The position numbers and the translations under genes were made by a program. 23,008 nucleotides of DNA from a virus: the IMG/VR virus record IMGVR_UViG_3300033463_005627, positions 1-23,008 of that record. The stretch is one strand, 5' to 3'. The notes under the pieces are model-generated. The model did not search any database. It saw nothing but the letters and a program-made list of their open reading frames with translations, and was not told the origin of the DNA. This document shows positions 12,544-13,749 of this stretch, one piece after another (position 1 is the stretch's first letter; each line of letters starts with the position of its first letter).

Positions 12544-13749
12544 CATTTATACCGCTCATTACTGAGTACTTTAACTCTGTTTTCAACAGACGGATTAGAC
12601 TATCTCATCATCCACACATAAGTGTTAGGATGCGGTGCGCTTCCAGCGGTACGTCTCCGCTGTACTTCCTTTCGGAATAGTCGTTACAAAAAGAAATTAT
12701 TCTGTTTTATATGTTTCATTGTTAACAATGTGATATATCGTTTTAATACTCGAACGTGATTTAAACTTTTCATAGATTTGAGGTACTTTCATCCCGTCTT
12801 TATACATCTGCCTAATAGTGTCAACCTCATCTTGTGAAAATTTGGCATTATTATTTCTACATCCATTTTGACGTCCTTTTGGTTTTGTGTGCTTTTTTCT
12901 ATTATTTGGAAGATCGCTCTGTATGTGCTTAAATGTATTATTGTTCCAAACATCCATAAATGTATTGAAGTTTTCTATCCCTGAAATTTCAAATACTTCA
13001 GCGCACGATAACCGCCCTTTGTTGTATTCATCTCTTATCAATATTACTTGTTCATCTGTAACAACTTTAATTGATTCATGAGATTGAACTTTATCATAAT
13101 TGTTTCTATGAAAATTTTTATTTTCGTCTGTATAAACGTCTAAATGGATATTTTTCCATGTTTTGCCATGCCAGATATCATTGAATGTATTTATGCTAAT
13201 TTTGTCAGCGTATTTTTTATAAACATTCTGTTTGTCATCATGTTTATTATACGACTCCCTAATATCCCAAATCTCTTCAGATGTCATTTTTGAATTTGGA
13301 TTATCTTCATTTAATAAATAAGAATTAAGATTCCCGCCGGTTGATATATTGTACCCAGCATCACGATTTGTAGAATTATATTTCTAAATATAATATATTT
13401 CACGTTCATTTAATTTTTCTTTATCACATTCTTCAAGGATATCAAAAGAAAATGCATCAACACCGTATTTATACATCGCTTTATACAAATAAGAATCTTT
13501 TCTTTCCGACTCTTGTTTATATTTACGCTTATGTTCTCCCCATCTTCTTTTTATATCAATTGATTGTCCAATATATACTTTATTGTTAACAAGATTTCTT
13601 ATAATATATATTCCAGCCATAATTTTCCTTCTCGGTATTGCCCTAAGTATAGGGGTTTCACCGATAGCATATTTTTAATACACCCCAATTTGTAAGATTG
13701 GTTCACACCGTTTTCATTTACACATTACTGTGTAAAGGCACTTCAATTA
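12544..13749 (-). mobile_element. Group I intron (T4 td-like, IA2-like) interrupting the thyX-like gene and carrying a GIY-YIG homing endonuclease ORF
   Basis: The intron begins UAAUUGAAGUGCC, where exon 'GCAU' can pair with 'GUGC' to give P1 with a U-G pair at the splice site. It has a GUAA-capped hairpin UUUACACA-GUAA-UGUGUAAA and AAACGGUGUGAACC (td has AAACGGGGAACC). Downstream of the ORF it has AACGACUAUUCCGAAAGGAAGUA (td has AACGACUAUCCCUUUGGGGAGUA), GAGAUAGUCUAAUCC (td has GAGAUAUAGUCUG) and a GAAA-capped hairpin UCUGUUGAAAACAGA. It ends ...AUAAAUG. The non-ORF RNA is about 280 nt. The intron is 1206 nt, a multiple of 3, so the exons join in frame. Confidence 0.6.
12697..13620 (-). CDS. 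GIY-YIG homing endonuclease (I-TevI-like), intron-encoded; one in-frame TAG at 13384..13386
   Basis: N-terminal 'GIYIIRNLVNNKVYIGQSIDIKRRWGEHK' is a textbook GIY-YIG motif. 'EREIYYI-TAG-KYNSTNRDAGYNISTGG' parallels I-TevI 'ERENFWIKELNSKINGYNIADATFG' across the TAG. The downstream 196-aa part carries repeated NTFNDIWHGKTWKNIH / NFNTFMDVWNNNTFKHI DNA-binding-type repeats. The ORFs 13384..13620 and 12697..13287 are in the same frame with no other stop between them. Confidence 0.8.

Follow-up and report, generated by a model that had tools for sequence, protein, structure and literature searches.

Amber codons inside homing-endonuclease genes of a rumen/gut-type phage lineage that very probably reads TAG as glutamine

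Does a TAG triplet in the middle of a catalytic domain end a homing endonuclease, or does it specify one of its residues? The question is raised by a viral DNA stretch of 23,008 nucleotides (nt; IMG/VR record IMGVR_UViG_3300033463_005627, positions 1 to 23,008; hereafter the window), in which an apparent group I-type intron within a ThyX-like gene carries an open reading frame (ORF) for a GIY-YIG homing endonuclease, here termed HEG1, with a TAG at its 79th codon. A preliminary description of the locus, made from the sequence without database searches, had proposed that this TAG is read through with the help of a nearby tRNA bearing the anticodon CUA. Our comparative analysis suggests that the TAG is very probably a sense codon, most likely for glutamine (Gln), in a lineage of rumen/gut-type phages that has recoded TAG to Gln in a code 15-like manner. 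The gene and the codon at issue are as follows.

12697..13620, minus strand: HEG1, a GIY-YIG homing-endonuclease ORF of 307 codons, supported by Pfam, PDB structures, homologs and the ratio of non-synonymous to synonymous substitution rates (dN/dS)

13384..13386, minus strand: in-frame TAG, codon 79 of HEG1, between the catalytic residues Glu74 and Asn91, placed by translation, the ortholog and the homolog P0003

Translation of the minus strand from 13620 to 12697 yields 307 sense codons in one frame, closed by a TAA at 12699..12697 and interrupted internally only by the TAG at 13386..13384. The two same-frame ORFs that had been seen parted by a single TAG are thus one 307-codon frame with one internal stop, and the peptide previously read across that stop (EREIYYI*KYNSTNRDAGYNISTGG, the asterisk marking the TAG) is exact. 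The codon lies well inside the nuclease domain: the Pfam GIY-YIG family (PF01541) matches residues 1-85, the TAG included, with E=5e-13, and the catalytic domain of I-TevI (PDB 1MK0/1LN0) matches residues 2-93 with E=2e-9, upholding an alignment to I-TevI that had been made by hand. In this alignment, the TAG falls opposite the K of the I-TevI segment FWIKELNS. Residues G3, I4 and Y5, Y16, I17 and G18, R26, E74 and N91 are invariant over 23 HEG1 homologs, and the domain is complete only when TAG79 is read as sense. The C-terminal two-thirds of the protein consist of three repeats of ~48 amino acids (E 2e-6 and 1e-5) that are kept in homologs of ~300 amino acids; a Pfam search matched no DNA-binding family to this part, and we regard the repeats as a putative DNA-binding-type module. 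Terminated at the TAG, the product has 78 residues and lacks both Asn91 and the whole DNA-binding part. The window is a metagenomic contig, but an assembly error can be ruled out because the TAGs and the shared region are identical, with 0 mismatches, in three assemblies (ENA ERZ27257207; Logan SRR10393135 and SRR10393136).

Evidence on how the codon is read comes from its relatives. A homolog search with HEG1 recovered 461 proteins, many of them uninterrupted and 300-320 amino acids in length. The closest homolog, P0001, present in four samples (L005-L008), has 307 amino acids, is 76% identical to HEG1 and lies in the same setting as in the window, namely ThyA, exon 1, endonuclease and exon 2. 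The database version of this protein had been called with TAG=Q, and its DNA holds four in-frame stops, all of them TAG, at codons 79, 151, 191 and 234. The TAG at codon 79 is the same codon as the TAG of the window, whereas the window has CAT, CAA and CAG (H, Q and Q) at the other three. The two genes align without a gap over 307 codons, with dN/dS of 0.13 before codon 79 and 0.15 after it (228 codons) at a synonymous divergence (dS) of ~1. Such low values indicate that, in both lineages, the sequence downstream of the TAG is translated and kept by purifying selection. In P0003, a more remote homolog whose gene was called in the standard code, codon 79 is CAA (Gln), and the position varies across the HEG1 family, being occupied by K, E, S, Q, G, N, T or I; the earlier expectation that homologs carry an amino acid here, such as the Gln of P0003 or K, E and S in others, is thereby confirmed. 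On these comparisons, the TAG is established as a selected sense position, and such positions in the lineage align mainly with Gln.

HEG1 is not the only gene of the window interrupted in this way. A second, free-standing endonuclease gene contains two TAGs.

17063..18346, minus strand: HEG2, a free-standing SegE-like GIY-YIG gene of 427 codons (SegE_GIY-YIG, PHROG 314)

18188..18190, minus strand: in-frame TAG, codon 53 of HEG2, also TAG in the relatives L009 and L010, CAT in L011 and TCG in L017

18074..18076, minus strand: in-frame TAG, codon 91 of HEG2, also TAG in L010 and L017, ATG in L009 and ATT in L011

HEG2 matches SegE_GIY-YIG (3.3e-5) and the homing endonucleases of PHROG 314 (8.8e-23, a match spanning both TAGs), and is cut by standard-code gene callers into products of 52 and 316 amino acids, the latter in the same frame. 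Its four ortholog versions (L009, L010, L011 and L017-19), with 42-86% identity and frames of 403-428 codons, are each interrupted by one or two TAGs and by nothing else. The interrupting sites are partly common to these versions and partly new, the new ones replacing AAG in L009 and GAG in L011. In HEG2, the internal ATG at 18013 is preceded at 9 nt by GAGGAG, which could let the C-terminal part be made alone before suppression sets in.

The same codon recurs in further genes of the relatives. The nucleoside deoxyribosyltransferase gene of L009 contains two in-frame TAGs, both of which are Q in the window and in L011, and the L009 gene for a 193-amino-acid protein contains four, at which the residues of the window are Q, E, Q and E; both genes (L009 14582..15010 and 15011..15592) are wholly uncalled by standard-code prediction. 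In L011, two in-frame TAGs lie in an HNH endonuclease ORF (12075..12527; Pfam HNH 1.4e-5) immediately downstream of a tRNA(CUA) gene. All 16 distinct interrupting sites found in five genes of the lineage are TAG, with 0 TAA, 0 TGA and 0 frameshifts. The commonest residue opposite them is Gln, at ~6-7 of the 14 comparable sites, even against a Gln share of <3% of codons, and Glu comes second. The phenomenon is, on this comparative evidence, wider than the single read-through event of the preliminary description: TAG recoding extends across the lineage and affects a second GIY-YIG gene in the window itself.

The distribution of these codons among genes is skewed. Our sample of this genome comprises 35 kb of early genes (the window together with 12.5 kb of a probable neighbouring contig, L021), with no structural or lysis genes among them, and internal TAGs occur across it only in the two GIY-YIG genes. 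Within the window, TAG accounts for 3 of the 20 Gln-type codons of the two endonuclease genes versus 0 among the 170 of all remaining genes (Fisher p=0.001), and the integrase has no in-frame stops. In L011, the other tRNA-carrying genome sampled, internal TAGs are found only in HEG2 and the HNH gene, which makes three unrelated types of homing endonuclease (intron GIY-YIG, SegE-like and HNH) the only internal-TAG genes in the two tRNA-carrying genomes sampled. LAGLIDADG ORFs in insertions that split the ribonucleotide reductase gene of two relatives (L009 18157..20715; L011 14344..15985) contain no TAG; the reductase gene of the window (5868..8135) is uninterrupted.

As a terminator, TAG is scarce in the window. 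The called genes of the window end in TAA (21), TGA (15) or TAG (3), and two of these TAGs are the internal ones of the endonuclease genes; the third ends the small ORF 10858..10688 on the minus strand, so that, of 37 genuine gene ends, TAG serves for one at most. The TAG that ends this small ORF is conserved in L009. The last 12.5 kb of L021 hold 23 genes with no internal TAG, of which four end in TAG, three of them with a TAA or TGA 1-12 codons later, and the same pattern of backup stops is seen in L009 and L011, every TAG end with a measured following stop being backed within that distance. Taken together, the small TAG-ended genes (window 10688..10858; L021 7239..7520, 8749..9000 and 11192..11413) have a TAA or TGA backup 1-15 codons on.

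Two explanations would leave the TAG of HEG1 a genuine stop, and both had been named in the preliminary description as outcomes that would speak against read-through. HEG1 might be a decaying pseudogene produced by a nonsense mutation from CAG to TAG, for which a single C-to-T change suffices; phage introns often harbour degenerate homing-endonuclease genes, and standard-code callers do split this one into products of 78 and 196 amino acids. Such decay is contradicted by the dN/dS of 0.15 over the 228 codons beyond the TAG, by the absence of insertions and deletions at dS ~1, by the occurrence of the same TAG in the ortholog, by the uniformity of the interrupting sites (16 of 16 are TAG) and by the presence of a tRNA(CUA). 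On the strength of the dN/dS values and the TAG-only interruptions, we reject the pseudogene explanation, to which we give next to no credence. It is also very improbable that the two halves are made separately, as a 78-residue N-terminal fragment and a 196-residue DNA-binding protein initiated at ATG 13287, for example a repressor-like protein without nuclease. This ATG does open a 196-amino-acid ORF, and the internal ATG 18013 of HEG2 has its GAGGAG 9 nt upstream. However, no Shine-Dalgarno sequence precedes ATG 13287 (AAATTCAAAAATG), whereas real starts carry AAGGA or AAGGAG, and the 33 codons between the TAG and this ATG encode the conserved catalytic block YN..GG, including the invariant N91, such that the split would part the conserved Glu74 from Asn91 within the catalytic domain. 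The additional TAGs of the ortholog lie within the 196-amino-acid part too, so that this part would also need suppression. Neither decay nor separate translation is thus borne out, and we return to reading the TAG as a sense codon and to the tRNA that would decode it.

10185..10277, minus strand: suppressor tRNA with anticodon CUA (ARAGORN; Rfam tRNA 58.9 bits)

10278..10399, minus strand: conserved structured element directly 5' of the tRNA gene (alignment, consensus fold)

A CUA tRNA had been placed about 3 kb from the TAG, and it is indeed found on the same strand at a distance of 3.1 kb. The endonuclease of about 310 amino acids predicted to arise by read-through is likewise supported by the 307-codon frame, which this particular tRNA would decode. 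The acceptor end of the tRNA comprises A1-U72, G2.U71, G3-C70 and the discriminator G73, and its variable region measures 21-22 nt, in which the two variants known share no conserved stem. The copy at the syntenic site of L011/L020 differs by 10 compensatory pairs distributed across all four stems and retains the anticodon loop CUCUAAA unchanged; compensatory change together with a kept anticodon loop points to a maintained, functional-looking tRNA. We rejected the label tRNA-Pyl given by ARAGORN, which reflects only the anticodon, and no pylS or pylBCD families appeared in the Pfam annotation of the window proteins. The CUA anticodon is also the only feature in common with the pyrrolysine system: tRNA-Pyl is compact, whereas here the D-loop is normal and the variable region 22 nt long, and the TAG sites lie at Gln and Glu rather than at Lys-like positions.

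The element of ~120 nt upstream of the tRNA is also kept in L011 (~11845..11950) and in L009 (15995..16110), which has no tRNA there. Its consensus folds into three hairpins, one of them a 13-bp stem, and it may form part of the tRNA expression unit. The element matched no Rfam family; pattern searches found none in IMG/VR and, in the JGI metagenomes, a single contig near-identical to L011. It can also be read as a mini-ORF that follows a strong AAGGAGG site and includes a conserved in-frame TAG (MWHKYMICCRGDGG-TAG-...). The bases of this mini-ORF are those of the 13-bp hairpin, and the three distinct sequences known are compatible with an RNA as well as with a coding reading. A scan for promoters and terminators around the tRNA gave sites no more numerous than in shuffled sequence. 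The insertion of the HNH gene in L011 and the missing tRNA in L009 suggest that the tRNA locus is a hot spot of mobile-element traffic.

Several observations weigh against a full TAG-to-Gln recoding in which this tRNA is the decoder. The evidence for translation across the TAG is comparative throughout, and genome-wide recoding is seen only via the relatives, the genome itself being sampled for 35 kb of early genes. Some small genes still end in TAG, and reassignment may therefore be partial or conditional. L009, the richest in TAGs, has no tRNA at the syntenic site, though it may carry a copy elsewhere, about half of its 41-kb contig being covered. Several TAG sites face residues other than Q, namely E, K, H, S, M or I. 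The tRNA itself appears to fit neither the normal class I nor the normal class II, its amino-acid identity being a prediction, and tRNA-Gln species have short variable loops, unlike this one. The timing role discussed below is one that we infer.

Some of these points could mean that TAG is sense through the phage tRNA(CUA) and yet specifies another amino acid, with Ser, Leu and Tyr as candidates. A long variable region combined with G73 is a Ser-type feature of bacterial tRNAs, and the present tRNA combines a variable region of 21-22 nt with G73; some TAG sites face S, H, M, I, K or E, and codon 79 of HEG1 is variable in its family. Nevertheless, Q is the most frequent partner of TAG, and E, the second, is chemically closest to Q. 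The variable region lacks a conserved stem, unlike those of Ser, Leu and Tyr tRNAs, and the acceptor end (weak 1-72 pair, G2, G3-C70 and G73) agrees with the identity set of Escherichia coli glutaminyl-tRNA synthetase. In phages of standard-code hosts, TAG-to-Gln is the only TAG reassignment so far reported (Borges et al., bioRxiv 10.1101/2021.08.26.457843). On balance, a residue other than Gln is improbable. In sum, decoding of the TAG as sense is strongly supported by the comparative evidence, and Gln is its likely meaning.

What purpose the codon might serve is a separate matter. Once present and charged, the phage tRNA(CUA) would decode TAG79 and thereby permit synthesis of the full 307-amino-acid endonuclease; charging would fall to a host enzyme, probably with Gln, and both TAGs of HEG2 would be read likewise. 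Before the tRNA accumulates, translation of both endonuclease genes would stop inside the catalytic domain, after residue 78 in the case of HEG1, and no nuclease would be made. The TAGs could thus act as a gate that delays nuclease synthesis until the suppressor tRNA has accumulated, along the lines of the model of Borges et al. for a TGA-recoded intron endonuclease.

It is quite possible, if short of probable, that the TAGs are sense and that their concentration in endonuclease genes is a non-regulatory by-product. This alternative concerns purpose and not decoding: mobile, weakly constrained genes might have been imported from recoded relatives or might tolerate weak suppression, with changes from CAG, GAG or AAG to TAG becoming fixed in them first. 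The level of recoding indeed drifts among relatives, the HEG1 ortholog having four TAGs versus one here and L009 having TAGs in ordinary genes; TAG sites in HEG2 turn over between lineages; and the LAGLIDADG ORFs of L009 and L011, being devoid of TAG, indicate that not every endonuclease is gated. Against a mere by-product stands the persistence of codon 79 of HEG1 and of both TAG sites of HEG2 over dS ~1 or 59-86% protein identity, as does the position of all three TAGs of the window in catalytic domains, where termination abolishes activity. TAG is, moreover, restricted to three unrelated endonuclease types in the two tRNA-carrying genomes, and a significant preference for the recoded codon was found in an intron endonuclease by Borges et al. 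A bolder version of the gating proposal, which we put forward as speculative and rather unlikely, would see the suppressor tRNA and the amber codons as a control module for selfish nucleases in the lightly recoded members of the lineage, with tRNA-dependent homing endonucleases that are able to mobilise the tRNA seeding a genome-wide change of code. It is suggested by the limitation of TAG to selfish nucleases, by the HNH gene adjoining the tRNA and by the missing tRNA at that site in L009.

The nuclease that would be gated in this manner resides in an insertion whose features several times recall group I introns.

12544..13749, minus strand: group I-type intron with HEG1, 1206 nt, set against an intron-less allele in L011

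13750..13947, minus strand: exon 1 of the ThyX-like (Thy1 family) gene, by comparison with L011

12109..12543, minus strand: exon 2 of the ThyX-like gene, by comparison with L011

The ThyX-like allele of L011 is an uninterrupted ORF of 205 amino acids (Pfam Thy1 E=1e-6 on the protein), which sets the junctions at 13749..12544. Exon 1 ends in ...GCAU and the insertion in ...AAAUG, with U and G, respectively, as the last base, and the exon-end GCAU can pair with a GUGC 8 nt into the insertion (read by eye). A TAA stop directly after exon 1 excludes an intein and identifies the insertion as an intron. The non-coding parts of the intron are 92% and 97% identical to those of L005, compared with just 79.6% for the endonuclease ORF. 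In its 3' core, the intron is similar to insertions that split terL and dnaE genes in Twort-like and SPbeta-like phages (Staphylococcus phages), the match being to the 3' ends of these insertions. Rfam gave no Intron_gpI match on the insertion, and also none on an ORF-bearing intron of a Twort-like phage, which makes this negative uninformative. Several features thus fit a putative group I-type intron.

This arrangement invites comparison with the intron of the T4 td gene and its endonuclease, I-TevI. As in I-TevI, HEG1 combines a GIY-YIG domain, in which R26, E74 and N91 are equivalent to the Arg, Glu and Asn of I-TevI, with a modular C-terminal part, and as in T4 the endonuclease is encoded within an intron of a gene for thymidylate synthesis. 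Unlike in T4, the host gene is ThyX-like rather than ThyA/td, and the DNA-binding part consists of three ~48-amino-acid repeats. Synthesis of I-TevI is delayed to late infection by RNA structure and late promoters, and not by a stop codon and a suppressor tRNA.

Recoding of TAG to Gln in phages was reportedly noted by Ivanova in 2014 and by Yutin in 2021. It has been described together with suppressor tRNAs in gut and rumen phages (Borges et al., bioRxiv 10.1101/2021.08.26.457843), and proteomic proof of code 15 in crAss-like phages is reported by Peters et al. (PMC9523058). The present lineage resembles code 15 phages in having in-frame TAGs mainly at Gln, a phage tRNA(CUA) and low GC (37%), in the absence of in-frame stops from the integrase and most early genes, in a degree of recoding that varies among close relatives and in samples that bear the names of cattle-rumen studies. 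Unlike in code 15 phages, homing-endonuclease genes are the sole carriers of internal TAGs here (35 kb), some small genes continue to end in TAG, and the variable region of the tRNA is 22 nt long. A close parallel is offered by TGA-recoded Agate phages. Three families prefer the recoded codon there, among them a group I intron endonuclease inserted in an early gene; Borges et al. propose a logic of delay and also note that integrases avoid recoded stops (bioRxiv 10.1101/2021.08.26.457843). As there, the endonuclease is intron-borne, lies in an early gene of nucleotide or DNA metabolism and contains recoded stops, with none in the exons; the proposed shared logic is that the intron splices out while the nuclease waits for the code switch. 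The two cases differ in the codon, which is TAG (Gln) here and TGA (Trp) there, and in the involvement here of a free-standing SegE-like GIY-YIG gene and, in a relative, of an HNH gene, as well as in the conservation of one TAG site at dS ~1. The present case is the TAG counterpart of the TGA phenomenon already described. As far as we could find, there is no earlier description of TAG being limited, in lightly recoded genomes, to homing endonucleases of three kinds, of a TAG site conserved between diverged orthologs or of an odd tRNA beside a conserved structured element.

The wider setting of these genes is a phage block of nucleotide metabolism and replication, in which all long ORFs of the window lie on the minus strand. 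The block includes genes for an NAD-dependent DNA ligase, a ThyA-like protein, a nucleoside deoxyribosyltransferase, a DUF1599 protein, a class II-type ribonucleotide reductase, a dUTPase, a DNA methylase, the integrase and an 811-amino-acid protein. The last of these (18678..21113, minus strand) contains a major-vault-protein (MVP) 'shoulder' domain (Pfam 4.6e-16). All relatives retain this protein, which is 33-35% identical to proteins in the huge-phage records LR756500-3 (460-735 kb, unannotated). No near-identical DNA was found among GenBank phages, where a search with the 811-amino-acid protein gave only these 33-35% matches. IMG/VR yielded only distant relatives, L014 (35%) and L015 (59%, on a 205-kb contig), which in the 22 kb examined lack HEG2 and the tRNA and show no clear recoding, and the DNA ligase found nothing there as a search anchor, whether used as a single sequence or as an alignment. 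L021 (ENA ERZ27257207 k141_2493391, 65611..78117) is the end of a 78-kb contig from the same sample and carries RlaP and an RNA ligase. Judging from synteny with L009 upstream of the 811-amino-acid gene, this contig is probably an adjoining piece of the same ~200-kb genome. Database relatives of the RlaP protein number ~8000, and many of them lie on contigs of 190-206 kb.

Our results bear on annotation as well as on the evolution of the genetic code. Standard-code calling splits both endonuclease genes of the window (78+196 and 52+316 amino acids) and leaves the L009 genes uncalled, and the lineage should be annotated with TAG as sense (Gln). So far, one early gene has been reported to harbour a recoded intron endonuclease, with TGA as the codon; the present locus adds a TAG example and extends the pattern to free-standing endonucleases. 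Among close relatives, some confine TAG to selfish nucleases and others have it in ordinary early genes. This gradation offers a way to study the onset of stop-codon reassignment and to ask whether holding toxic or selfish genes in check is its first function.

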